64,000 nt of DNA, taken from sequence record OQ708376.1. One strand, 5' to 3'. This DNA is from Escherichia phage vB_EcoM_CRJP21. Of this stretch, positions 1,101-61,515 are shown one piece after another. Position 1 is the stretch's first letter. Every line of letters begins with the position of its first letter. Both the position numbers and the translations under genes were made by a program. The notes below the pieces were generated by a model. That model had not been told where the DNA came from and searched no databases. It worked only from the letters and a program-made list of their open reading frames with translations.

Positions 1101-1108
1101 TATAAATA
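1101..1108 (+). promoter_or_regulatory. T4-type late promoter box TATAAATA
   Basis: Exact TATAAATA about 39 nt upstream of the ATG at 1147, consistent with gp55-dependent late promoter geometry in T4. Confidence 0.5.
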
Positions 1109-1146
1109 ATCTATAGATAATGGCAGCTTGGCTATGGAGAATTATA

Positions 1147-3540
1147 ATGACAACTTTTACCCCACGATGGGATATAAAAGCCGATGCTCGATATATACAA
1201 GAAGGACAAGACATTCTTGTGCGTTTGAGTATCAATAAAGAAAGCACAACGGATGATAGCTATGTATTAAATGAAGATGAATACTTAGAAATGATTCTTA
1301 ACATACAATGCTTGGATAGTTCAGGTGCTGTATTTGATCCAGAACCACATTATACTTTTTATGTTGGTAATGACGAAAATACTTTTGTTCCTATTTCAGA
1401 TGGTACAACTGGTAATAAATTAGTAAATGGTAAGCATAAGTGTAAAATCAGCAAAAATGAATTTAACTTATCTGCAAGTACTAATAGTGAAGATGTTTAT
1501 TTTATAAAAATTCATTGTAAAAATGATGGAACCTATAATAATACAGAAATTATAAATTTTTATTTACAAGCAGTAAATGTTATGTATTTTGGAAATATTT
1601 CACCAAGTGGTGTTCTAGGATTAACTGATACATCAATAACATATGATAGTCAAGAAGTTTGGGTTACACCAGGAGTTGAGATTGGTGATGACAAAAAGCT
1701 TTATTGTATTGGTGATGTTGAGTATGGCTCCAACAGTACATTGTTCGTTCAAGGATTTGGAAGAAGACGACCTTTCATTTTGGGTACTGACATGACTACT
1801 GATATTACACCTCGTGTCTTTTTTCCAGCATATCGTTTGATTGACATGGATATTTCTGAAGTTCCAGATAAACATATTACGAATGATTTCGCAGTATTCA
1901 AGCCAGCACAATCAACATGGCCTATTTCTGGTATAAACAAAGAAGTAAAAGTTAATATTCAAAATAGAAATGGTAATTTAATTGACACTGGAATGGTGTT
2001 CAACCCAAATGGGCAATTATTGCAAACATTTTTATATGACTCAGATGCTTGTGATGCATATTTTAAAGTTGAGATTGTTGATATATTAAGTACATACACC
2101 GAAGAAAGTGAAAGGTTTGCTATCAATCAACGATATAAAGCATATCAAATGTGGGTTTGTCCTGAAGACATAGATACTATATATTCTATTTCAGAAAAAC
2201 CACTACCCAATCATTTATATCAATTAAAAGATAATGTTGTGTATCCATACGTAATTAGTGGTGAATACGATAATGGAACAATTAAGCCCGTTTATGATAG
2301 TAGTGATTGGATTGATTTAGGATATTATGACTCTACTCTTGGTGATAATATCATTGGTATGCAAAAAATGTTCAGGGTTTTGATAAACGCAGAAGAAGGT
2401 AATAATATAAACTTTATTACTGATAGTGATTTAGGAACCATACATGTTGGTGAATATTTTGGAGACAGTATATATCCTAAAATTGAAACTGATAGCTCTA
2501 ATCAAGTTTCGTATGTTTTAGATGGTGGTGATGACATTAGAAAGTATGGGATAGATTTGACACCAGATGGATATCTTGTAGGAACTGCATATGCCAAAAG
2601 TATTGATTTTAGTGAAAATGATGATATTAAATTATCGTTTTATGTTAAAGCATTTAGTACTGAAGGTGGTGAAGCAAGAAAAATATTTAACCTTAAGATT
2701 GTAAGAGGATTCGGACAGAATTATTTGAGTGCACATGTATTACCTTCGGTTGCATTTGAGAGAGAATGGTTTAAATGTATAAGTACTTCATCATTCACTA
2801 ATCAACTATTTTTCCGACAATCTGACAATAGATATGGTCTTCAGAAAATACCGAAGATGTTATTGAAAGAAAACTTCCTAAGTCAAACGTATCCATATAC
2901 TAACCTTTCTGATATCAAGAAAGTATTGAGAAATAGTATAATTAACCCAAATGGAACTACTATTCCAAATGGAAAATTTAAAATGGTAATGGGTAATTAT
3001 AAAATAATATCAGCACTTGACAATCAAGGTAACTTACAATATGATCTATTATATAGAGAGGTTTTACCTGAAGGTTCTTTAGTATCTGTATCCAAAAATC
3101 CACGTCAATATACTCAAATCGACAACGGTCAGCTTGGTGAATTATTTGGTTTACGACAAAATATTTTTCAGGCTATTGGTGAAGACACAACCAACTTAGT
3201 AAAAGACCCAACCGATTTACAAAATCGTGGTCTATACGTTGATGCGATACCAAGTATCAGTGATGAAATGCTTGATACGGTCCCAAGATTTATGAATCAC
3301 CCATACATTGAAGATGGTATACAGAAAAAATTCATGCCTATCATTCCAGTTGCATATTGTCAACCAGGCAAAGGTGAAGCATTTTTCAACACTTTACTTC
3401 AGAACAATGAACATGGTACAATGGTAGGTGTAGAGTTCGAAATCACATCGGTTGAATTCGGATACTTTTCGCATGAATCAGTGAATTATGTTTCAGATAC
3501 ATTTTTGATTACATTGCAAAACAATAACATAGGAGGTTAA
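1147..3540 (+). CDS. Large hypothetical protein (about 797 aa), probably a late/structural gene
   Basis: Long ORF (track 1120..3540); start moved to ATG 1147, which has an upstream GGAG. Preceded by a TATAAATA late box. No catalytic motif recognised. Confidence 0.6.
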   Translation: MTTFTPRWDIKADARYIQEGQDILVRLSINKESTTDDSYVLNEDEYLEMILNIQCLDSSGAVFDPEPHYTFYVGNDENTFVPISDGTTGNKLVNGKHKCKISKNEFNLSASTNSEDVYFIKIHCKNDGTYNNTEIINFYLQAVNVMYFGNISPSGVLGLTDTSITYDSQEVWVTPGVEIGDDKKLYCIGDVEYGSNSTLFVQGFGRRRPFILGTDMTTDITPRVFFPAYRLIDMDISEVPDKHITNDFAVFKPAQSTWPISGINKEVKVNIQNRNGNLIDTGMVFNPNGQLLQTFLYDSDACDAYFKVEIVDILSTYTEESERFAINQRYKAYQMWVCPEDIDTIYSISEKPLPNHLYQLKDNVVYPYVISGEYDNGTIKPVYDSSDWIDLGYYDSTLGDNIIGMQKMFRVLINAEEGNNINFITDSDLGTIHVGEYFGDSIYPKIETDSSNQVSYVLDGGDDIRKYGIDLTPDGYLVGTAYAKSIDFSENDDIKLSFYVKAFSTEGGEARKIFNLKIVRGFGQNYLSAHVLPSVAFEREWFKCISTSSFTNQLFFRQSDNRYGLQKIPKMLLKENFLSQTYPYTNLSDIKKVLRNSIINPNGTTIPNGKFKMVMGNYKIISALDNQGNLQYDLLYREVLPEGSLVSVSKNPRQYTQIDNGQLGELFGLRQNIFQAIGEDTTNLVKDPTDLQNRGLYVDAIPSISDEMLDTVPRFMNHPYIEDGIQKKFMPIIPVAYCQPGKGEAFFNTLLQNNEHGTMVGVEFEITSVEFGYFSHESVNYVSDTFLITLQNNNIGG

Positions 3541-20505: not shown

Positions 20506-20957
20506 ATGTTGACGAAATAAAAAATCATTTTGAAATTGCAATGTCATGTGAATTTGACACACAACGTGTTCATGACCCGAAAGAACATATACGCATTTGT
20601 TGTGAATTGTCAGATGATTGTAATATTTTTATTGGAAAAACCTATGACATGATCGATCTTTCATGTATAGATCCATTGGAAAGAAAAACAAAATATTTAT
20701 ATCTGTACAACACAACATCAGATACGATTGCAATACAACTAATATCAACCACAACATCCCACAGTTATTATAACATAACTGAGGTTAGTAGTTTAACGTT
20801 AACCGAAGAAGGATTCTTTCAACAATCGCTTATTCGTGAAATTGGTGTTAGTTATGATGAGTTAAATGTATTAGTAGATTGTTTCGAAAAATTGAGTACT
20901 TTTGTATTATCCCTTTTTAATATACAGTCGCAAAATCCAATGGTGGTGAAATGCTAA
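20496..20957 (+). CDS. FFQxS-motif paralog family member
   Basis: Motif instance TEEGFFQQSLIREIGVSYDEL. Confidence 0.6.
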   Translation: MQMNVDEIKNHFEIAMSCEFDTQRVHDPKEHIRICCELSDDCNIFIGKTYDMIDLSCIDPLERKTKYLYLYNTTSDTIAIQLISTTTSHSYYNITEVSSLTLTEEGFFQQSLIREIGVSYDELNVLVDCFEKLSTFVLSLFNIQSQNPMVVKC

Positions 20958-32118: not shown

Positions 32119-32454
<336 letters not shown>

Positions 32455-32455
32455 A

Positions 32456-32638
32456 ATGACACACGAAGAATGGATGTCCAAACAGCATAAAGAACATGAC
32501 TGCTTTGGGAATGGCATTCGTCAGGTACATTATGATATATTAAGAGATGAAAATCTTTTCAGGTCATATGTTTTGGATACCAGAAAACCCTGGTTTATAT
32601 GCGAACTGGCATTTAGAAAGTCAAATAATCAAAACTAA
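32456..32638 (+). CDS. MTHEEW mini-protein family, copy 3 (60 aa)
   Basis: MTHEEWMSKQHKEHDCFGNGIRQVHYDILRDENLFRSYVLDTRKPWFICELAFRK; track 32438 start trimmed to the conserved ATG. Confidence 0.5.
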   Translation: MTHEEWMSKQHKEHDCFGNGIRQVHYDILRDENLFRSYVLDTRKPWFICELAFRKSNNQN

Positions 32639-32654
32639 ACAAGGAATACAAAAA

Positions 32655-32873
32655 ATGGAAACAACTTTATTAGAAGTTATTCAATCATTAAAACCTGAAG
32701 ATGAGGTTCAAGTACTACTACATGGTTATCGTGTAAAAGGTACTGTGGTTTTAGTCAATGATACAACATTGGTTATTACAGAAACAAACCCATATGATAG
32801 TAATCAACTTGCCAATATCCATATCGATATCACTGGAATTATTGGTGTCGGTGTATCTAAAACACTTGCATAA
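32655..32873 (+). CDS. Hypothetical protein (72 aa)
   Basis: Track 32547..32873; start moved to ATG 32655 behind AAGGAA, since the upstream part overlaps copy 3. Confidence 0.45.
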   Translation: METTLLEVIQSLKPEDEVQVLLHGYRVKGTVVLVNDTTLVITETNPYDSNQLANIHIDITGIIGVGVSKTLA

Positions 32874-32893
32874 ATCATTAATTCATTATATAA

Positions 32894-33022
<129 letters not shown>

Positions 33023-33026
33023 AATA

Positions 33027-33103
33027 CGGGGTATAGCACAATTGGATAGTGCAAGAGAATTCTAATCTCTAGGTTGGGGGTTCAAGTCCCTCTACCTCGG
33101 CCA
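33027..33103 (+). tRNA. tRNA-Arg (anticodon TCT)
   Basis: Acceptor CGGGGTA / TACCTCG; D-stem GCAC/GTGC; anticodon stem-loop AGAGA-ATTCTAA-TCTCT; T-loop TTCAAGT; CCA encoded. Confidence 0.8.
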
Positions 33104-33126
33104 ATTTTAATTAAAGGTTAAAAACC

Positions 33127-33453
<327 letters not shown>

Positions 33454-33461
33454 AAAAAAAG

Positions 33462-33875
<414 letters not shown>

Positions 33876-33935
33876 CTAAATAATTCAGTACTGAGGATAT
33901 TAATATGTTTAAAGATGAACGTCCAGATTTGTAAA

Positions 33936-34066
<131 letters not shown>

Positions 34067-34069
34067 TAC

Positions 34070-34229
<160 letters not shown>

Positions 34230-34244
34230 CAATGCGAGGTATAA

Positions 34245-34502
<258 letters not shown>

Positions 34503-34510
34503 GAATTTAA

Positions 34511-34912
34511 ATGAAAAAGAATGACTTGATCAAAATGCTTCAAGAAATTGACGGCAATCCAGAGATTGTTATTTGGAATGGATACGTCGATGATTATATG
34601 AACATCGAAAAAGGCTTGACTAAAATCACTCTAGTCAAAGAAACCGAACAGTTTCTTCAGGGTGCATTAGAGCACGAATGGTGTGAACGTAACAATACAT
34701 TCGACATTCCAGAAGACCAACGAACCAAGATTGCAGAACGTGCTAAAGAACTGCATAAGAAACGCGAATACGATTTCCAGAACCCATATGTCACTGAAGA
34801 CGAATTCAATCGCTGGTACGGTAAAAAGAAATTGACAAAGTATGTCCTTTCACCTAAACTACGTGGTAAGACTTCACTTGGTGTATTCAACGCCGCAGAC
34901 TTAAACTACTAG
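34511..34912 (+). CDS. Hypothetical protein (133 aa); paralog of 34925..35140 at the N-terminus
   Basis: N-terminal MKKNDLIKMLQEIDGNPEIVIW matches MKAKDLIKILQNNPEADILIH in the next gene. Confidence 0.5.
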   Translation: MKKNDLIKMLQEIDGNPEIVIWNGYVDDYMNIEKGLTKITLVKETEQFLQGALEHEWCERNNTFDIPEDQRTKIAERAKELHKKREYDFQNPYVTEDEFNRWYGKKKLTKYVLSPKLRGKTSLGVFNAADLNY

Positions 34913-34921
34913 CGGGTATTA

Positions 34922-35471
<550 letters not shown>

Positions 35472-35531
35472 TACAACCGACAATGACGAAAGAACAGTTA
35501 TCAACATTTATCAACGCAGCATTAGATAAAA

Positions 35532-35563
<32 letters not shown>

Positions 35564-35615
35564 TACCAAGCAGCTTGAAGAACTTTGTAGTGCTGCACCT
35601 ATGCCGACTCTTGGC

Positions 35616-35716
<101 letters not shown>

Positions 35717-35728
35717 TATCTTACTTCT

Positions 35729-35818
<90 letters not shown>

Positions 35819-43675: not shown

Positions 43676-44151
43676 TGTTAACAATAGTGTTGTTGGTTAG
43701 TCCATTTGTGTATTTTGTGCTGTATAATATTTTTAGTAATGCTAATCATTTTAAATATGCACAAACAATTGCAAAGCATGAAGGTTTTTGGAATTTTTTC
43801 CCAGCATTACTATGCTCATATCTATACCATGAACGCTATTTCATTTTTCCTGAATATAAAAATTATGGTTATGATTCTAAAGTAAATGGTATAATTGAGT
43901 ACTGTATAAGAAATTATATTAATAATAATGATAACGTCCAAGTAAGAATAGGAAATGGTAATATATCAAGAATAGTTTTCATACCTGATATACAAGACCC
44001 AATATACTTATATCCATATGATTATAGTATTAGTGTAGGTTGTTCGATACATGGTAGTAAATCTATGTACGATTATTTTATCTTACCACCAACACAAATT
44101 AGATTAATAGAAAAATATTTGAGGGAAAAGTTTGACAACAAAGATTCTTAG
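43675..44151 (+). CDS. Membrane-anchored protein (158 aa)
   Basis: N-terminal TM helix LTIVLLVSPFVYFVLYNIF. Confidence 0.5.
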   Translation: MLTIVLLVSPFVYFVLYNIFSNANHFKYAQTIAKHEGFWNFFPALLCSYLYHERYFIFPEYKNYGYDSKVNGIIEYCIRNYINNNDNVQVRIGNGNISRIVFIPDIQDPIYLYPYDYSISVGCSIHGSKSMYDYFILPPTQIRLIEKYLREKFDNKDS

Positions 44152-45814: not shown

Positions 45815-45843
45815 TTGACATAACAAATAATATGGAGTACAAT
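45815..45843 (+). promoter_or_regulatory. Sigma-70-type promoter
   Basis: TTGACA, 17 bp spacer, TACAAT. Confidence 0.55.
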
Positions 45844-45882: not shown

Positions 45883-46143
45883 ATGAAATCTATTCTCGTT
45901 GCAGTTAACCTGGTTGCTTCCCCATCTTTCAACTTCAAACAAGTTGTTGCTGATAATCTGAAGAAGATCTGTCCAAACGCTGAATTGACTTTCTGTGTAT
46001 TTGATTCAGAAAAAGTAACTAAAGTTGATCTAAACTATCTTTTGAACGAAGTACAAAGCGTTTCTGGTGAAAGTAACTTAAAAGTTCTTCATGAGATTGC
46101 AGAAGATTATGATGACACTCTAGTAATTTCGGAGAAATTCTAA
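45883..46143 (+). CDS. Hypothetical protein (86 aa)
   Basis: ORF with RBS AAAGGAAA. Confidence 0.5.
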   Translation: MKSILVAVNLVASPSFNFKQVVADNLKKICPNAELTFCVFDSEKVTKVDLNYLLNEVQSVSGESNLKVLHEIAEDYDDTLVISEKF

Positions 46144-46148
46144 ATCAA

Positions 46149-46568
46149 ATGATTACATTCATTCAGTACTTAATCATTAAATTTTTTGGCTATTATACGA
46201 TTGAGGGCAAAGCTACGCTTGCACATAAAATCTTTGTAGCATTATGTACGGGTGATTATGACGTATTGAATAAGTACTGTAAATCTAAAGAATGTATTGA
46301 TATAATGGCACTTCGTATCTATGAGTGCCGATCCAATAGATACAATTTTTACCAGTACAGATTTGATAAAGAAGAATTTGATAGCATCAAAATGCTAAAG
46401 AATTTATGTAACAATAAAAAGAATATGCATATATCAGAATTTGTTGCTTTGTATTTTTATTTAAAAAGTTCATTGTATATGAACACGATGCAAAGATTCG
46501 ATACTAGAATTAATGTATTCACCGATAAAGAATTTTATATATACGATAAATTCTTAGATAAGGTTTAA
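46149..46568 (+). CDS. Hypothetical protein (139 aa)
   Basis: ORF 5 nt after the upstream stop. Confidence 0.5.
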   Translation: MITFIQYLIIKFFGYYTIEGKATLAHKIFVALCTGDYDVLNKYCKSKECIDIMALRIYECRSNRYNFYQYRFDKEEFDSIKMLKNLCNNKKNMHISEFVALYFYLKSSLYMNTMQRFDTRINVFTDKEFYIYDKFLDKV

Positions 46569-46569
46569 T

Positions 46570-47067
46570 ATGACAACTGTTTATATTGATAAACGATTAA
46601 ATTTATTGATTACCGATTCTAGAGTTACGTCAACTATACCACGAAACTTATTTGGTTTTTTCCCACTAAGACCAAAATATCAATATGGAGTTGTTAATCA
46701 AAAAACTTTATATGTACATGACCGTTTATTCAGTGCTAGTGGGTCAGTAAGTGAAATTGATAAAGTACTGGATTGGTTAATTAATAAAGTACCAGTTATA
46801 CCTGACAGAAAGTTAAGTTGCCATTGTGTGCTTCTTTCTAAAGATTATGTTATTCATATGATTTTAACTAAAGGAAAGTTTATTAAAAAACTTGAATATC
46901 TACATGAAGACTACACTTTCTTTATGGGAAGTGGTGGAGAATACATGGTAGATGCTGCTATTCATGAAGAACATACAACTTTATATGATAAAGTGTTTAG
47001 TACTTTCATGGATGTGCATAACCATGATTGCTTCACAGATGATAATATTAATGTATATCGATTTTGA
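46570..47067 (+). CDS. Hypothetical protein (165 aa)
   Basis: ORF with start overlapping the upstream stop (TAATATG). Confidence 0.5.
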   Translation: MTTVYIDKRLNLLITDSRVTSTIPRNLFGFFPLRPKYQYGVVNQKTLYVHDRLFSASGSVSEIDKVLDWLINKVPVIPDRKLSCHCVLLSKDYVIHMILTKGKFIKKLEYLHEDYTFFMGSGGEYMVDAAIHEEHTTLYDKVFSTFMDVHNHDCFTDDNINVYRF

Positions 47068-47088
47068 TTTCGTCATTAGGAGATGTAA

Positions 47089-48054
47089 GTGAAAAAGCTT
47101 GATTTAAATACAATTGCCGAAGAAGTTCTGGATGAATGTTTTTCTAATGAAGAAGTCAACACACTAGAAGCCTTAGATTTCGTTGAAGATAAAGATGAAA
47201 ATGAAGGTAAAGTACAAAGCAGTTTCAAATATAATATTACACTTAAGCGACCACCAAATGTTTCCAATGAAGATCTAATTCGTGATATTCAAGCTGGTAT
47301 CAATGTAAAGAAAAACACTGAACTGTTAGTTCGTTACAATTATGGACTTATTATTGATGTAGCAAGTAAATGTACTTGTTATATCCCATTTGAAGATAAG
47401 ATTTCATATGGTGTTGAGGGGTTCATGAGAGCACTAAAAACCTTTGATCTTAATAAGAATGTGAAGTTCATTACCTATGCTTCTTCTAGTATTTACATGA
47501 CAGTTTATAACGAAAGTTCTGACGCTAACTATATGGTACACTTCCCACGTTATATGAGTGTTCATAAGATCAAAGTAAAAAGATTCTGTCAGGAATATAT
47601 GCGTAAACATGGTGTTCGCCCAACTCCTGAAATAATCTCAGAGGGTACTGGGATTGAGATTCAGCATGTTAATAACTGTTTGTTATTTCAAAGCGAATAC
47701 ACTTCTCTGGATGCACCATTAGACGGTGTTACCGATGGTACACTAGGTGACATTATTCATTCACCTGCTTCTGATTTTAACCTCAATGTTGATAGTATTC
47801 GTGCACCTTTACGTTATGCTATCAATGAACTGACTAACGAATTGAGTACTAAAGAACGTGAGATTATCCAGCGTGTTCATGGTCTAGGTGAATATGAACC
47901 TGAAACGCTTCGTGAGATTGCTGATAATGGTTTTGTTGATGATAATGGAAAATATGTTAAATCCCGTTCATCAATACACCGAAAGTACAGTGAAGCTATG
48001 CAAAAGCTTAAGAAGTTAGTACTTGCAAAAGGGTACGAATACGAAGATTTCTAA
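47089..48054 (+). CDS. Sigma-70-family RNA polymerase sigma factor
   Basis: Region 2-like LLVRYNYGLIIDVASK ... FEDKISYGVEGFMRALKTFD ... FITYASSSI and region 4-like LSTKEREIIQRVHGLGEYEPETLREIA ... SRSSIHRKYSEAMQKLKKL; GTG start behind AGGAG. Confidence 0.75.
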   Translation: MKKLDLNTIAEEVLDECFSNEEVNTLEALDFVEDKDENEGKVQSSFKYNITLKRPPNVSNEDLIRDIQAGINVKKNTELLVRYNYGLIIDVASKCTCYIPFEDKISYGVEGFMRALKTFDLNKNVKFITYASSSIYMTVYNESSDANYMVHFPRYMSVHKIKVKRFCQEYMRKHGVRPTPEIISEGTGIEIQHVNNCLLFQSEYTSLDAPLDGVTDGTLGDIIHSPASDFNLNVDSIRAPLRYAINELTNELSTKEREIIQRVHGLGEYEPETLREIADNGFVDDNGKYVKSRSSIHRKYSEAMQKLKKLVLAKGYEYEDF

Positions 48055-48063
48055 AGAACAAGG

Positions 48064-48090
48064 GTTGGCTTATGCCAACCTTTTTTTTAT
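48064..48090 (+). terminator. Intrinsic terminator
   Basis: GGTTGGC-TTAT-GCCAACC hairpin followed by TTTTTTTT. Confidence 0.75.
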
Positions 48091-48118
48091 GGGATGAAGT
48101 AAAAGTTTGTGATATAAT
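48090..48118 (+). promoter_or_regulatory. Promoter with extended -10
   Basis: TGTGATATAAT with a weak -35; would transcribe into the ORF-free GC-rich segment downstream. Confidence 0.45.
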
Positions 48119-48129
48119 TATCTTGTACA

Positions 48130-48600
48130 ATTCTGTTGGCATGATATTCATGTACCTGATCCACTCGAAAACGTAGAGGGCAGTTGAGCAGTCCGACAGT
48201 GCGAACAGCAAAAGAAACCCGTTAGATGTGGGCATAGTTTGAACCCCTCACGGCAATGCGGCTGTATAAAGAACCACGTTAGGATAGCTGGTGGTTCCTT
48301 GATAGACATATAAGGATAACACCTTACGAATTATCTAAGGGAGAGTTATCGAATTTTGTACAGGAAAGTTGCGTCCAAAATTTGAGTACTCACATTAAGT
48401 ATTTGATTGCATAGATACTTAATGAAGATACACTATGTTTAAAAGTGTAGACCGTCATATGAAACTGAAGTAGAGAGAAACAGGATGACCCGCTTTCGCA
48501 CTCGTTATGAGTAATCTTCAATGCAATAGCTCTGATACCATCAGCGTCAAATTTCCCTCCTTGTGGGGGGAAGAAAAATCCCTTCCTCAAATCCCGTCAA
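48130..48600 (+). ncRNA. Candidate structured noncoding RNA (GC-rich, ORF-free segment)
   Basis: About 470 nt with no plus-strand ORF; local GC around 47-52% (hand count on two 60-nt lines) against about a third genome-wide; hairpins such as GAACCAC ... GTGGTTC, TTAAGTAT ... ATACTTAA and TTCCCTCC-TTGT-GGGGGGAA; own promoter upstream and a separate promoter downstream. Confidence 0.35.
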
Positions 48601-48611
48601 TATTAAAAGTC

Positions 48612-49143: not shown

Positions 49144-49932
49144 ATGAGCACTATAGATGAACTGATTCGACGGAATTCAAAATATTACCAACCATCAGAA
49201 ATTGTAGGTAACATTACCAAATCAGAGTTTGGTCCAAATACTCGAAAACTCATTCATGTAATGTCACGTGATGGCTTTAAATGTGATTGTTGCGGTGAAT
49301 CTAATGTAGTATTCACTTTACACAAGCACAGTACTAAAGATCGTTATAAATTCAGACCTTATGTACTTAAAGGGAAACGCCTTGTACGCATGACGTTAGA
49401 CCATAATGTACTGGACTGTCTTCAGGGCGGTAATGATAAAGAGAACATGACTGCACTGTGTGAAGATTGTAACGCATTACGCCAGCATAAGTTTGCTGAA
49501 TACAGTGAGTTTAAACACTGGTATAATAACGCGGATCGTTCAATCGAGCCTGACGTTAACTACTGCTTCATTGAGTACATTAAGAATGCCAAAGATACAT
49601 ACATTCTTAAATCAATGTCACCTATTACCGTGTTTCCTGAGAACCTATTCACTACATTAAAGAATAGTTTTATTGTAGGTGATATTGATGCATTCAAGTA
49701 TTTTGACAAAGGTGCAAAACATTTTGAAATTCAATGTCTTAGTACTGCACTATGTGAACTCATTAAAATTTACATAAAAGAGTATTTGGGTATTGACAAT
49801 GTACGTGTACCAGAGTATACTTTTTCTATTGAATTCGATTGTGAATCAATCAAAGAGTTTGGAATTCTTTTCAATAAACAAATAGAACTTGCAATTCAAA
49901 ACGAAATCAAGTACTATACTACTAACATTTAA
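49144..49932 (+). CDS. HNH-family endonuclease (homing-endonuclease-like)
   Basis: FKCDCCGES ... TLDHNVLDCLQGGNDKENMTALCEDCNALRQH: paired CxxC with His/Asn core typical of HNH. Confidence 0.6.
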   Translation: MSTIDELIRRNSKYYQPSEIVGNITKSEFGPNTRKLIHVMSRDGFKCDCCGESNVVFTLHKHSTKDRYKFRPYVLKGKRLVRMTLDHNVLDCLQGGNDKENMTALCEDCNALRQHKFAEYSEFKHWYNNADRSIEPDVNYCFIEYIKNAKDTYILKSMSPITVFPENLFTTLKNSFIVGDIDAFKYFDKGAKHFEIQCLSTALCELIKIYIKEYLGIDNVRVPEYTFSIEFDCESIKEFGILFNKQIELAIQNEIKYYTTNI

Positions 49933-56336: not shown

Positions 56337-56528
56337 ATGTTGATTTATCAAAGTGATAATATTCGTGTTATGCAGCATCCCTACTTACAAATCTTTGATG
56401 TGCAGCAGTATATGGAAGGTGATGACCCAAGAACCTATGGTCGTAAGTATGATTACTTCACTGTAAAGCAGTGTAAAAATATTAACGAAGTACGACAATT
56501 AGTTCAAGAACTTCAAAACAAAGGTTGA
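56337..56528 (+). CDS. Hypothetical protein (63 aa)
   Basis: Track 56283..56528; start moved to ATG 56337 behind TAAGGATTGA. Confidence 0.45.
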   Translation: MLIYQSDNIRVMQHPYLQIFDVQQYMEGDDPRTYGRKYDYFTVKQCKNINEVRQLVQELQNKG

Positions 56529-59266: not shown

Positions 59267-59337
59267 TGGGACAACCATTCTTATTATGATATAATGTTTT
59301 ATGTCATTCGATATAAATGACAACGGAACTATAAATA
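59267..59337 (+). promoter_or_regulatory. Tandem early (sigma-70-type) and T4-type late (TATAAATA) promoters
   Basis: TGGGAC, 17 bp spacer, TGATATAATGTTTT; then exact TATAAATA at 59330..59337, about 37 nt before the ATG at 59374. Confidence 0.5.
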
Positions 59338-59373: not shown

Positions 59374-59757
59374 ATGGTTGATAAATGGAATAAGAAAGAT
59401 CCATCACATGATGTTGATATTTCTGGTCTAGACAATGCACATAAGCACAAGTATCTAGATTCACTAGGTCTTCTAAAACCAGACCAAAGTCTTGCACATG
59501 ATCGTCCATCCCGTGAAAAAGCATTTAGCCTAGAATCACTAGGTCATGAGCTTAATCGTGTGTTTGAGGATCACCCAATCTATGTACGTGATATTATCGA
59601 GAAACTTAAAGTAACTCCTAAAGAGCACTTTAAAGCAACTGTACACTCTGCATTCCGTGCATTGCATGATTCTCTAAAGAAAACTCACAATCTTCGTAAA
59701 ATTCATGATGAAATCGTGAATGCAATCGAAAGTGAAAAACATAAGTTCAAGAAGTAA
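59374..59757 (+). CDS. Hypothetical protein (127 aa) with SLGLL module; probable late gene
   Basis: KHKYLDSLGLLKPDQ resembles KLRYVNSLGLLNATQ in the 60028 gene; TATAAATA box upstream. Confidence 0.55.
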   Translation: MVDKWNKKDPSHDVDISGLDNAHKHKYLDSLGLLKPDQSLAHDRPSREKAFSLESLGHELNRVFEDHPIYVRDIIEKLKVTPKEHFKATVHSAFRALHDSLKKTHNLRKIHDEIVNAIESEKHKFKK

Positions 59758-59948: not shown

Positions 59949-59986
59949 GGTTGACTTCGGTCAGCCTTTTCTTTATACTATAAATA
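59949..59986 (+). terminator. UUCG-tetraloop terminator fused to an early promoter and a T4-type late promoter box
   Basis: GGTTGAC-TTCG-GTCAGCC then TTTTCTTT; embedded TTGACT, 17 bp spacer, TATACT; exact TATAAATA at 59979..59986. Confidence 0.65.
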
Positions 59987-60027
59987 TAGTCATAGAGAAA
60001 AAAATGAAATCTATGGAGAGAAATCAA

Positions 60028-61515
60028 ATGCCAAGTAATTTTACTGATAAAAATGGTGGTAACATGGCTGGTCACTCTGATAAATGGAGTGAACGCAACC
60101 GCCGTCCAAATAGTTATCAAGCAGGTCAAGGTTCACGTGGGTCACGTAACCAAGGAACTGGTCTAGCTGGTAAAGCAAACGCAGAAGCAGGTGAAGTTAA
60201 GAGTACTGAGAACATGACTGAGCTAGAAAAGCTACGTTATGTTAACTCATTAGGTCTTCTTAACGCAACACAAAAACAACGCCTTGCTGATATGGAACGT
60301 GCTGAGAAAGAACAAGCAGTTCCTAAAGAAGAACCAAAAGCAGAAGTACCTAAAGCTGCTAACCCTGTTAAAGAGTTATCAGATAACTTAGGTAAGATCT
60401 TTGCTAACAAACCACAGTTGATTCAGGGTATTGTCAAAGCACTACAGGCAGTTCCTAAAGAAGAACTCAAAGGTAAAGCACAAGCTGTACTTGATGTAAT
60501 GAAAGGTAATAAGAGCACTGAACCAACTGAAGTATTCAGTACTATCATGCGTGCACTTGAAGGTACACACAAAGAAGATTCCAAAGAACCTGAACAGGGT
60601 GAAGCAAGTCTTGATGGTATTCTTAAAACTTTTGATAATATTGGTAAAGCAGACCGTGCTAATGCCCAGCAAGTCAAGAATGTACTGGCTAAACTTGAAA
60701 ACCGTTTAGAAGGTAAAGACAATAAGGTTAAGCTCGTATCAGATGCAGTTAACAGTGCACTTAAATCTTATGTACAAGGTGAGAAAAGTCGCTTCGTAAC
60801 AGCTATGGATGCTGCATTCAACACTATGAAAAAGTATGAAGCAGAACATGGTGAGAAGGTAACACCAGATGGTTATCTAAAGCGTGCAGATGAAGAGGGT
60901 GCAGTTGAACAGAAAGATGTTGAGCCTGAGCAAGAAGAAATACCTGATACCGTTGATATGGATGGATACATTCATCGTCCTGAGATGGAAGAGTTTGGGT
61001 CAGATAAAGAAGGTTTTGAACATGCAATGGCAGTATATAAAGCATTAGTTAAAAATCCAGATTATGCTAACCGTTTTGTTGACGAGTTTGATAGTGCATG
61101 GAATAACTACAAAGAGAAAGGTTATGACTTCCCTGCTGAAGCTGCATTCTTTGAACTTGGTAAACTATTAGCTAAACATGGAATTGACGTTGGTTCATCT
61201 GATTCCGAAGGTATGGAAGAAGAACATCTTGAAATGACCGATAAATCAATTCATGAACTTCAAAAGCTAATGATGTGGATATCCGAGATTGGCAAAAAAG
61301 CAGGTGCTGATCGTAAAAGTATCAACAAAAACATTAGTTGGATTAAAGATAATGTTGGTAACAATGCTCGTAAACTTCAAAAGGCGTGGGCTGATTTAGT
61401 AAATGGTGCAGATGATGTTGACATTGAATCACCAGAAGCATATGAGTATGCACTAACTACACTTGATAACTCATTCAAAGAGTACGACAGTGGTGTTGGA
61501 AAGGATAAAAAATAA
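60028..61515 (+). CDS. Large charged hypothetical protein (about 495 aa) with SLGLL module; probable late gene
   Basis: Track 60004..61515; start moved to ATG 60028 behind GGAGAGAAA; Lys/Glu-rich; visibly higher GC than its neighbours; TATAAATA late box about 42 nt upstream. Confidence 0.6.
   Translation: MPSNFTDKNGGNMAGHSDKWSERNRRPNSYQAGQGSRGSRNQGTGLAGKANAEAGEVKSTENMTELEKLRYVNSLGLLNATQKQRLADMERAEKEQAVPKEEPKAEVPKAANPVKELSDNLGKIFANKPQLIQGIVKALQAVPKEELKGKAQAVLDVMKGNKSTEPTEVFSTIMRALEGTHKEDSKEPEQGEASLDGILKTFDNIGKADRANAQQVKNVLAKLENRLEGKDNKVKLVSDAVNSALKSYVQGEKSRFVTAMDAAFNTMKKYEAEHGEKVTPDGYLKRADEEGAVEQKDVEPEQEEIPDTVDMDGYIHRPEMEEFGSDKEGFEHAMAVYKALVKNPDYANRFVDEFDSAWNNYKEKGYDFPAEAAFFELGKLLAKHGIDVGSSDSEGMEEEHLEMTDKSIHELQKLMMWISEIGKKAGADRKSINKNISWIKDNVGNNARKLQKAWADLVNGADDVDIESPEAYEYALTTLDNSFKEYDSGVGKDKK

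Follow-up and report, generated by a model that had tools for sequence, protein, structure and literature searches.

The open reading frame (ORF) at positions 47089 to 48054 of a 64,000-nucleotide stretch of Escherichia phage vB_EcoM_CRJP21 (record OQ708376.1; "the window" below means that whole stretch) encodes a sigma factor, and I lean, from comparison of sequences, towards the view that this factor is made early and directs the middle step in a cascade of early, middle and late transcription. The DNA comes from a jumbo phage of the genus Asteriusvirus; between 46000 and 49000 the window shares 99.6% of its letters with Escherichia phage 121Q (genome of 348.5 kb), and about 20 other records match that region at 98-99% identity.

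The sigma gene itself was known before. Dozens of near-identical genomes carry an annotation for it, and an RpoD-like sigma factor has been cited as a hallmark of the RaK2/121Q/CBB-type group (Sharanji paper, PMC11895373). All "group 2" jumbo phages are said to encode a minimal and/or RpoD-like sigma factor, plus gp33 (Iyer et al., PMC7824862). The paper on phage CBB (PMC5259590) placed the orthologue, CBB_513, in a predicted early region, named a gp55-like factor, CBB_244, and predicted three classes of promoters: RpoD-like promoters, "divergent" promoters in which TGAAACG replaces TTGACA before genes of DNA synthesis, and ATAAATA late boxes. The TGAAACG motif, together with a TATA motif, was given there for phages CBB and GAP32. 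The gene, and the joint occurrence of an RpoD-like sigma factor, a gp55-like factor and three promoter classes, are therefore already known. A search of the literature found no paper that assigns promoters to the sigma protein or gives transcription data for the clade. What is new here is an assignment of promoters, a modified sigma4 domain and a family of structured RNA, all three as testable leads.

A sigma factor with a modified region 4

As judged by profiles and predicted structure, the ORF encodes a real sigma-70-family factor with domains in the order sigma2-sigma3-sigma4, and the assignment of the whole protein is not in doubt. Its parts are as follows.

47078..47082, plus strand: Shine-Dalgarno sequence AGGAG, 6 nucleotides 5' of the GTG start, read in the sequence
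47089..48054, plus strand: gene for the sigma-70-family sigma factor, 321 residues, GTG start, orthologue of 121Q gene 167, from profile, structure and nucleotide matches
47236..47538, plus strand: sigma2 domain, about residues 50-150, from alignment with sigma70, the AlphaFold2 model and family alignments
47548..47688, plus strand: sigma3 domain, about residues 154-200, from Pfam Sigma70_r3 and AlphaFold2 helices
47788..48027, plus strand: sigma4 domain, about residues 234-313, from Pfam r4 and AlphaFold2 helices at 234-250, 254-264, 274-280 and 293-313
47929..47964, plus strand: insertion of 8 residues peculiar to the family, in the stretch 281-292 (NGFVDDNGKYVK) at the turn of the helix-turn-helix (HTH) of region 4.2, a predicted beta-hairpin, from AlphaFold2 and alignments
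47965..48027, plus strand: recognition helix of region 4.2 (S-R-S-S-I-H-R-K-Y...), from family alignments

The coincident gene of 121Q carries the annotation "RNA polymerase sigma factor". The protein passes the NCBIfam model of the sigma-70 superfamily, TIGR02937 (44.7 against a cut-off of 42.9), and lies above the cut-off of Pfam Sigma70_r3 (residues 162-226, 37.8 bits, 2e-9, cut-off 25.3); it falls just below those of Sigma70_r4 (residues 251-279, 23.9 bits, cut-off 24.1) and Sigma70_r2 (22.9 bits, E 7e-5, cut-off 24.0). Residues 79-283 match the NCBIfam model RpoD_Cterm at 6e-25, and the only PHROG matched is PHROG 351, "RNA polymerase sigma factor" (2e-60). Chains of sigma70, SigA and RpoS (sigmaS) in the PDB match as well, the best at 5e-17, in alignments that span the entire region 2, and Foldseek with the AlphaFold2 model returns sigmaS and SigA holoenzyme chains (1e-9, probability 1.0). 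An earlier note on this DNA, made from the sequence alone, had seen "clear sigma-70 region 2 and region 4 signatures" in the protein, which slightly overstates the match of the single domains. Membership in the sigma-70 family stands, on the strength of TIGR02937, Sigma70_r3, the PDB and Foldseek; the models of the single domains 2 and 4 are missed by a little. Classification with sigma-factor profiles, which that note had advised, gave a member of the sigma-70 family (TIGR02937, RpoD_Cterm, PHROG 351) and not some other HTH regulator.

The protein fits none of the named types closely. Its scores lie far from the equivalog cut-offs of RpoD_Cterm (88 against 354 bits) and RpoS (70.5 against 378.7), and the SigB/F/G and FliA models are likewise far from their cut-offs. 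Neither region 1.1 nor region 1.2 (PF00140) gave a Pfam match in the protein, and residues 1-49 are predicted to form a single helix or to be disordered. Pfam gave no match to region 4 of the extracytoplasmic function (ECF) type (PF08281) either, and with a sigma3 domain present the protein does not have the two-domain architecture of group 4 (ECF) factors. An ECF-like look of the recognition helix (R-S-x-I-H-R) is a resemblance that no search confirmed, and it is not used as evidence here.

The AlphaFold2 model has a mean predicted local distance difference test score (pLDDT) of 70; it is confident in sigma2, sigma3 and sigma4, with residues 1-49 and 204-238 disordered. The insertion is modeled as two strands, 282-283 and 289-290, in a block with pLDDT of 86-90, followed by the long recognition helix. 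Alignment with sigma70 shows that Y130 (Y430 of sigma70) is retained, as are the equivalents of F427, D445 and P453. The equivalents of W433, W434, Q437 and T440 are S133, S134, M137 and Y140, and those of R441, E458, E585 and R588 are altered too. A PDB search restricted to the region 4 fragment gave alignments across region 4.1 and the first helix of the HTH and no further (RpoS region 4 at E 0.2). The recognition helix cannot be aligned by sequence because the 8-residue insertion interrupts the HTH.

These peculiarities belong to a family. With an E limit of 1e-3, an exhaustive phmmer search gathered 19,226 proteins of the sigma family, amongst which about 18 clusters (at 50% identity) beat 1e-28; there is then a gap, the next matches coming only at 6e-20. 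Members are about 275-350 residues long. All of the roughly 18 clusters begin with the motif LxLxxIxxE(V/I)LxExF (MKKLDLN..EVLDECF), followed by an acidic disordered linker, and the N-terminus MKKLDLN is kept in all homologs of the sigma protein. Every member has small residues in place of the W433/W434 pair and keeps Y430, and the family throughout has an insertion of 8-9 residues with an invariant G-x-x-D-x-x-G (G281, D284, G287) in the turn of the region 4.2 HTH. Ordinary sigma factors aligned alongside them keep the tryptophan pair (one reads YAVWWIRQ) and lack the insertion. The protein of the window has all of the family's features. R298 of the recognition helix hardly varies, and positions 293 and 297 are hypervariable. 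I know of no other sigma factor in which the recognition helix is placed after a beta-hairpin inserted into the HTH of sigma4, as is predicted here.

Annotated orthologues include 121Q gp167, that of PBECO4, the "RpoD" of Sharanji (WNN14470.1), CBB_513 and RaK2 ORF244. Orthologues are 99-100% identical within Asteriusvirus and 32-46% identical in other genera. Between clades the sigma protein (32-46%) evolves much faster than the gp55-like factor (73-78%). Scans of viral contigs with the alignment of the sigma family and with primase turned up nothing beyond 121Q itself. The C-terminal tail KGYEYEDF was considered as a tail that binds the sliding clamp, like those of T4 gp55 and gp33, and the idea was dropped; the tail is conserved only in the 121Q-like subgroup and is absent from the sigma proteins of RaK2, Munch and the CBB-like phages.

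A third class of promoters

The earlier note had held that an extra sigma factor implies an additional class of transcription, and it had seen no -35/-10 pattern distinct from that of host-like promoters. It was right about the class and wrong about the pattern. Promoters were tabulated on the genome of 121Q, put together from seven 50-kb segments, by counting sites of the form xxGACA-N-TATAAT. TTGACA favours a spacer of 17 nucleotides (52 sites, as against 23 at 16 nucleotides), while sites with GG-, GA- or TG- before GACA are nearly confined to a spacer of 16. The sequence G[AG]GACA-N16-TAnAAT occurs 17 times, always on the plus strand, where a second-order Markov null gives 0.27 +/- 0.5; with any other spacer from 12 to 21 there are 0-3 sites. 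The consensus of the class is aaaaaaa.TGgGACAAa....aa.tt.gTGATATAAT, that is, TG(G/A)GACAA-N15-TGnTATAAT, and the motif published for CBB and GAP32 is analogous. The TG of an extended -10 is present in 14 of the 17 sites, compared with 2 of 18 strict early promoters. The third class thus differs from the early class in box, in spacer (16 against 17) and in the extended -10, and it is clearly separable from host-type TTGACA-N17-TATAAT promoters.

The sites in 121Q precede genes for primase, the g29 exonuclease, topoisomerase II, the DNA polymerase region, a nudix protein, the thymidylate synthase (thyA) operon and the gp55-like factor. Three of them have no ORF nearby and drive genes for a structured RNA, described below. 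The window holds these sites:

32895..32922, plus strand: strict middle-type promoter GGGACA-N16-TATAAT, 10 nucleotides before tRNA-Ser (32933)
48091..48118, plus strand: variant middle-type promoter GGGATG-N16-TATAAT with an extended -10 TG, right after the terminator of the sigma gene, driving the RNA gene
59268..59295, plus strand: strict middle-type promoter GGGACA-N16-TATAAT, 5' of ORF 59374-59757 (121Q g199)

The first of these lies in a cluster of seven tRNA genes at 32141-35808 (Gly, Ser x2, Arg, Met, Asn, Thr), before the Ser/Arg pair at 32933; the equivalent spot in 121Q has TGGACA rather than GGGACA. At 59268-59337, the structural ORF 59374-59757, embedded in the early region, has a middle-type promoter and a late box, TATAAATA, in tandem. 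The published CBB motif TGAAACG occurs 11 times in the window against 7.7 expected, which is not significant; the box of the 121Q clade is TGRGACA.

The box changes with the recognition helix

Boxes were compared at orthologous promoters, those of the gp55-like gene, topoisomerase II, the exonuclease and the RNA gene, and set beside the start of the recognition helix. Boxes of three further metagenomic lineages, which fit the pattern, are listed last.

121Q and Munch-like contigs: helix S-R-(S/T)-S-(I/L)-H-R, box TG(G/A)GACA
CBB, GAP32, BF, Yen9 and five metagenomic contigs: helix S-K-A-T-L-S-R-R-Y, box TG(G/A)AAC(G/A)
RaK2: helix V-R-G-T-L-H-Y, box TTGAA(C/T)A-N18, no TG
Metagenomic lineage P0038: helix S-K-P-T-L-Q-R-R-Y (K at 293), box TGAAACA
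Metagenomic lineage P0048: helix S-T-A-T-M-S-R-R-Y (T at 293), three TGAAAC sites
Metagenomic lineage P0041: helix T-S-P-T-L-S-R-R-Y (S at 293), box TGAAATT

Counts on the plus strand of syntenic 50-kb replication modules show the boxes to be specific to the clade. The module of 121Q has 4 boxes of its own type, 2 of the CBB type and 1 of the RaK2 type; that of BF has 6 of its own, none of the 121Q type and 1 of the RaK2 type; and that of RaK2 has 6 of its own and none of either other type. The sigma protein of Munch is 46% identical to that of BF and 37% to that of 121Q, yet Munch has the helix residues of 121Q and the G-type box as well. The box therefore tracks the recognition helix and not overall relatedness.

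Every host of these phages belongs to the Enterobacterales, and region 4.2 of sigma70 is essentially identical from one of these hosts to the next, so a box that is specific to the clade needs a reader encoded by the phage.

A probable early operon

The sigma gene is apparently the last of a four-gene operon within a long early region of small ORFs on the plus strand.

45815..45843, plus strand: early host-type promoter TTGACA-N17-TACAAT, like the sigma70 consensus (11/12 match), the nearest 5' of the sigma operon
45883-46143, 46149-46568 and 46570-47067, plus strand: three tightly packed ORFs, apparently co-transcribed with the sigma gene
48060..48083, plus strand: strong intrinsic terminator, a 10-bp stem and T-run, which closes the sigma operon

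Between the promoter at 45815 and the start codon of the sigma gene there is no further promoter-like site on the plus strand that matches at 9/12 or better. Perfect or near-perfect TTGACA-N17-TATAAT promoters stand around the gene at 44132, 45494, 45815, 48613 and 50438, and 121Q has 118 host-type sites that match at 11/12 or better, mainly at 50-160 kb. Early-type promoters around the gene and a terminator after it fit early expression by the host's sigma70 holoenzyme.

The neighbouring ORFs of the operon, checked as possible anti-sigma factors or partners, matched only PHROGs without known function and had no Pfam match. The ORF directly 5' of the sigma gene, 46570-47067, has a weak PHROG match to peptidases of the HslV family (4.9e-6).

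A model for middle transcription

I propose that the host's sigma70 would transcribe the early region, including the sigma gene, from a host-type promoter. The phage sigma factor would then bind the host's core RNA polymerase and take it to the TGRGACAA-N15-TGnTATAAT promoters with their A-rich upstream tract. The middle targets would be genes of replication and nucleotide metabolism, the tRNA cluster, the four copies of the structured RNA and the gp55-like gene, whose product in turn would activate TAAATA late promoters. The box itself would be read by the recognition helix of region 4.2, in an HTH interrupted by the beta-hairpin peculiar to the family. Of all this, the family of the protein, its early-type setting, the promoter class with its statistics, the variation of the box by clade and the correlation with helix residues are observed; the identity of the reader, this protein and not another factor of the phage, and the timing are inferred.

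A more specific version goes further: that each member of the family reads the -35-like box of its own clade (TGRGACA, TGRAAC or TTGAAC), one base nearer to the extended -10, through the helix after the hairpin; that residues 293 and 297 set the specificity; and that the previously undescribed RNA of about 400 nucleotides, which exists in several copies and travels with the sigma gene, is one of the main targets. All this is quite possible, though I stop short of calling it probable.

Several facts weigh against the assignment of the third class to the sigma protein. The search of the literature turned up neither expression data nor biochemistry on any protein of the family. The -10 is a perfect TATAAT of the sigma70 type, often with TG, and sigma70 of E. 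coli could probably initiate at such promoters even where a -35 is missing. Residues of regions 2.4 and 3.0 differ from those of sigma70 and from clade to clade, and the -10 has remained the same. The covariation of box and helix amounts to few independent evolutionary changes (about 3 states of the box), and some other DNA-binding protein of the phage could covary equally well. Specificity for the box is not absolute, at least one good TGGAACA site being present in 121Q too. Finally, with the recognition helix unalignable to solved sigma4 structures, contacts between particular residues and bases are conjecture.

An alternative view is that a different DNA-binding activator of the phage reads TGRGACA together with the host's sigma70, as MotA and AsiA do in T4, and that the phage sigma factor has other targets. 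Indeed, a -10 perfect for sigma70 and often extended, with a -35 replaced by another box at a fixed distance, is the architecture of T4 middle promoters, and there are hundreds of early ORFs without an assigned function in which an activator might reside. One "transcriptional regulator" lies two genes from the sigma gene in the CBB paper (PMC5259590). A search with T4 sequences of MotA, AsiA and gp33, the first two by tblastn against 121Q and the window, found no significant match, which is a weak negative; the best match of AsiA, at E 0.055, is 121Q g502, a member of PHROGs without known function. Against such an activator, the box covaries with the recognition helix of the sigma factor, even in Munch, where overall similarity predicts the other box. 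Moreover, if the sigma factor does not read the third class, there is no over-represented promoter motif left for it to read. I consider this alternative unlikely, if still worth taking seriously.

Might the phage factor instead be a general substitute for sigma70, serving all TATAAT promoters, early and middle, without specificity for a class, once the host's own factor has been inactivated or sequestered? The best profile matches are factors of the RpoD, RpoS and SigA type, and TATAAT is common to every class of phage promoter except the late one. However, region 4.2 is strongly altered, both by the 8-residue insertion and at the equivalents of E585 and R588, and it is unlikely that such a protein reads TTGACA at a spacer of 17 nucleotides. 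A general substitute would also leave unexplained the box, the spacer and the TG of the middle class, and their variation amongst clades. It seems to me distinctly improbable.

That the protein is a decoy, competing for core RNA polymerase to shut off the host without directing initiation, would suit the absence of the W433/W434 pair (which matters for melting by sigma factors of group 1) and the conserved N-terminal helix with its acidic disordered linker, but it is very hard to credit: the tryptophan pair is missing from several genuine group 3 factors too, all three DNA-reading domains are retained under purifying selection in about 18 diverged clusters, including Y130 and the helix with R298, and a pure decoy would have no use for sigma3 or for a helix that diversifies at two positions.

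Comparison with known systems

The proposed middle sigma factor has functional counterparts in Bacillus phage SPO1 and in T4. In SPO1, an early phage sigma factor, gp28, replaces the host's primary sigma factor on host core RNA polymerase for middle transcription, and a cascade leads to a second factor, gp33/34, for late transcription; the likeness extends that far. SPO1 middle promoters have a -35 and a -10 both unlike those of sigmaA, whereas here only the -35-like box differs, the -10 being TATAAT, and the late factor here is gp55-like. With the T4 middle system the likeness is one of functional slot: a -10 of the sigma70 type and a phage box that replaces the -35, before genes of replication. 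A T4-related set of genes for replication and morphogenesis is the setting of middle promoters in both. T4, however, uses the host's sigma70 again, by means of the MotA box and AsiA, while the phages considered here have a complete sigma factor and no detected relative of MotA or AsiA.

T4 gp55 is like the phage sigma factor in being a phage-encoded specificity factor for host RNA polymerase, and a gp55-like gene and TAAATA boxes are present in the lineage too. T4 gp55 is a minimal factor, like sigma2 alone; the protein described here has sigma2, sigma3 and sigma4 and belongs to PHROG 351, as against 12791 and 234. The earlier note had denied classical T4 a sigma-70-family factor, which holds only in a loose sense, gp55 being itself a very distant relative of that family. 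Cellular factors of groups 1 and 2 (E. coli sigma70 and sigmaS; SigA) share domain order and fold with the phage protein and give the best matches; the phage protein differs in having no match to regions 1.1 and 1.2, no tryptophan pair, an insertion in the HTH and scores far below the equivalog cut-offs. Gp36 of phiEco32 and the sigma factor of phage 7-11 are two-domain factors like those of group 4, while here sigma3 scores above the Pfam cut-off.

The analysis provides a regulatory map, open to test, for a large clade of 350-kb phages: three classes of promoters with coordinates, a candidate reader of the middle class, two residues predicted to set its specificity, and a gp55-like late factor placed under the control of the middle class. 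If the model is true, then there is a second route to T4-style middle transcription, through a dedicated sigma factor rather than appropriation of the host's. It would also be a natural case in which the specificity of sigma4 evolved by way of a modified HTH, useful for making orthogonal pairs of sigma factors and promoters.

A structured RNA next to the sigma gene

After the sigma gene comes a stretch of 650 nucleotides free of ORFs, which holds the core of the structured RNA.

48150..48552 (within the region 48091-48605), plus strand: structured RNA core of about 400 nucleotides, folded into 12 helices; four paralogs per genome, this one included; a probable target of the middle class

121Q has three paralogs of it, near 192.8, 247.5 and 326.6 kb, and each lies behind a strict G[AG]GACA-N16-TATAAT promoter. 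Similar sequences are found at 253 places in 61 records of jumbo phages, 2-5 per genome (mostly 4) and almost always unannotated. Support for the structure comes from eight diverged copies and 12 helices with 65 pairs. In their alignment, 97.9% of cells are paired, as against 35-42% when the partners are slid; compensatory changes occur in 34 of the 65 pairs, as against 4-7 in slid controls; and none of 500 shuffles reaches the observed values. Rfam gives no match to the RNA, either at its gathering threshold or with E relaxed to 10, and nhmmer found no similarity between the family and the regions of ncRNA001 and ncRNA002 of PA5oct. The RNA of fEgEco12 has 96% nucleotide identity, compared with 59% protein identity for the adjacent sigma factor, and two distant metagenomic lineages also have the RNA directly 3' of the sigma gene. 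This unannotated family linked to a sigma factor may be a more original lead than the sigma gene itself.

Genes for endonucleases lie near some of the copies. A gene for an HNH endonuclease (PHROG 35175, 8e-187), at 49144-49932 of the window, begins about 540 nucleotides downstream of the RNA; in 121Q a second HNH gene (g513) lies some 0.9 kb away from the copy at 247.5 kb, and endonuclease VII is the neighbour of a third copy. This proximity may be coincidence.

Late promoters and the gp55-like factor

The earlier note had found T4-type late boxes, TATAAATA, at 1101, 59330 and 59979, and those positions are exact. There are two more, on the minus strand, at 20694 and 26819. The three on the plus strand are intergenic. 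Each is followed, 12-45 nucleotides on, by the earliest start codon that an ORF could use, and these ORFs match genes annotated in 121Q as structural genes of the virion, namely g54, g199 and g201.

1101..1108, plus strand: late-type box TATAAATA, intergenic, 5' of ORF 1120-3540 (121Q g54, structural)
59330..59337, plus strand: late-type box TATAAATA, 44 nucleotides before ORF 59374-59757 (121Q g199, structural)
59979..59986, plus strand: late-type box TATAAATA, 5' of ORF 60004-61515 (121Q g201, structural), right after a terminator/promoter module

The boxes stand before virion genes, but they are not enriched in the window. They are rarer than chance would have it (5 observed, 12.6 +/- 3.3 in shuffles), so their number is no evidence, and their credibility comes from their position. 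Across the genome of 121Q, TAAATA is found in 58 upstream regions where 7.4 are expected (about 8-fold), with a peak 32-43 nucleotides before start codons and a concentration in regions of structural genes. Rarity overall, together with enrichment of TAAATA in upstream intergenic regions, suggests counter-selection of late-promoter words within genes.

The gp55-like gene, whose product is the expected reader of these boxes, lies outside the window. It is gene 591 of 121Q (321985-322824, 279 residues), which matches PHROG 12791, "sigma factor for late transcription", at 2.7e-154 and PHROG 234 at 8e-18, and it adjoins genes for SbcCD (T4 46/47-type). T4 gp55 has about 185 residues. In each clade examined, the gp55-like gene is preceded by a promoter of the middle class. 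Given this gene and the upstream enrichment of TAAATA, the suggestion of T4-type late promoters in the lineage is borne out. Another gene of 121Q outside the window, gene 533 (255134-255466), is annotated "putative sigma 54".

Terminators joined to early promoters

Modules that combine a terminator and a promoter, of the form aaGGGTTGACTTCGGTCAGCCCtttttgcTATAAT, recur in the window at 56525, 59951, 61528 and 62613 (TTGACTTCG...), and others of this type are found in 121Q at 98698-112729 and 144925. The -35 hexamer, TTGACT, is within the stem of a terminator hairpin with a UUCG loop, and the T-run serves as the spacer to TATAAT. With the -35 inside the hairpin, a single compact element closes one early transcript and opens the next. 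Outside the window, at 117089-131255 of 121Q, the early region on the plus strand is broken by about 14 paralogous RCC1-like "DNA condensation" genes on the minus strand.

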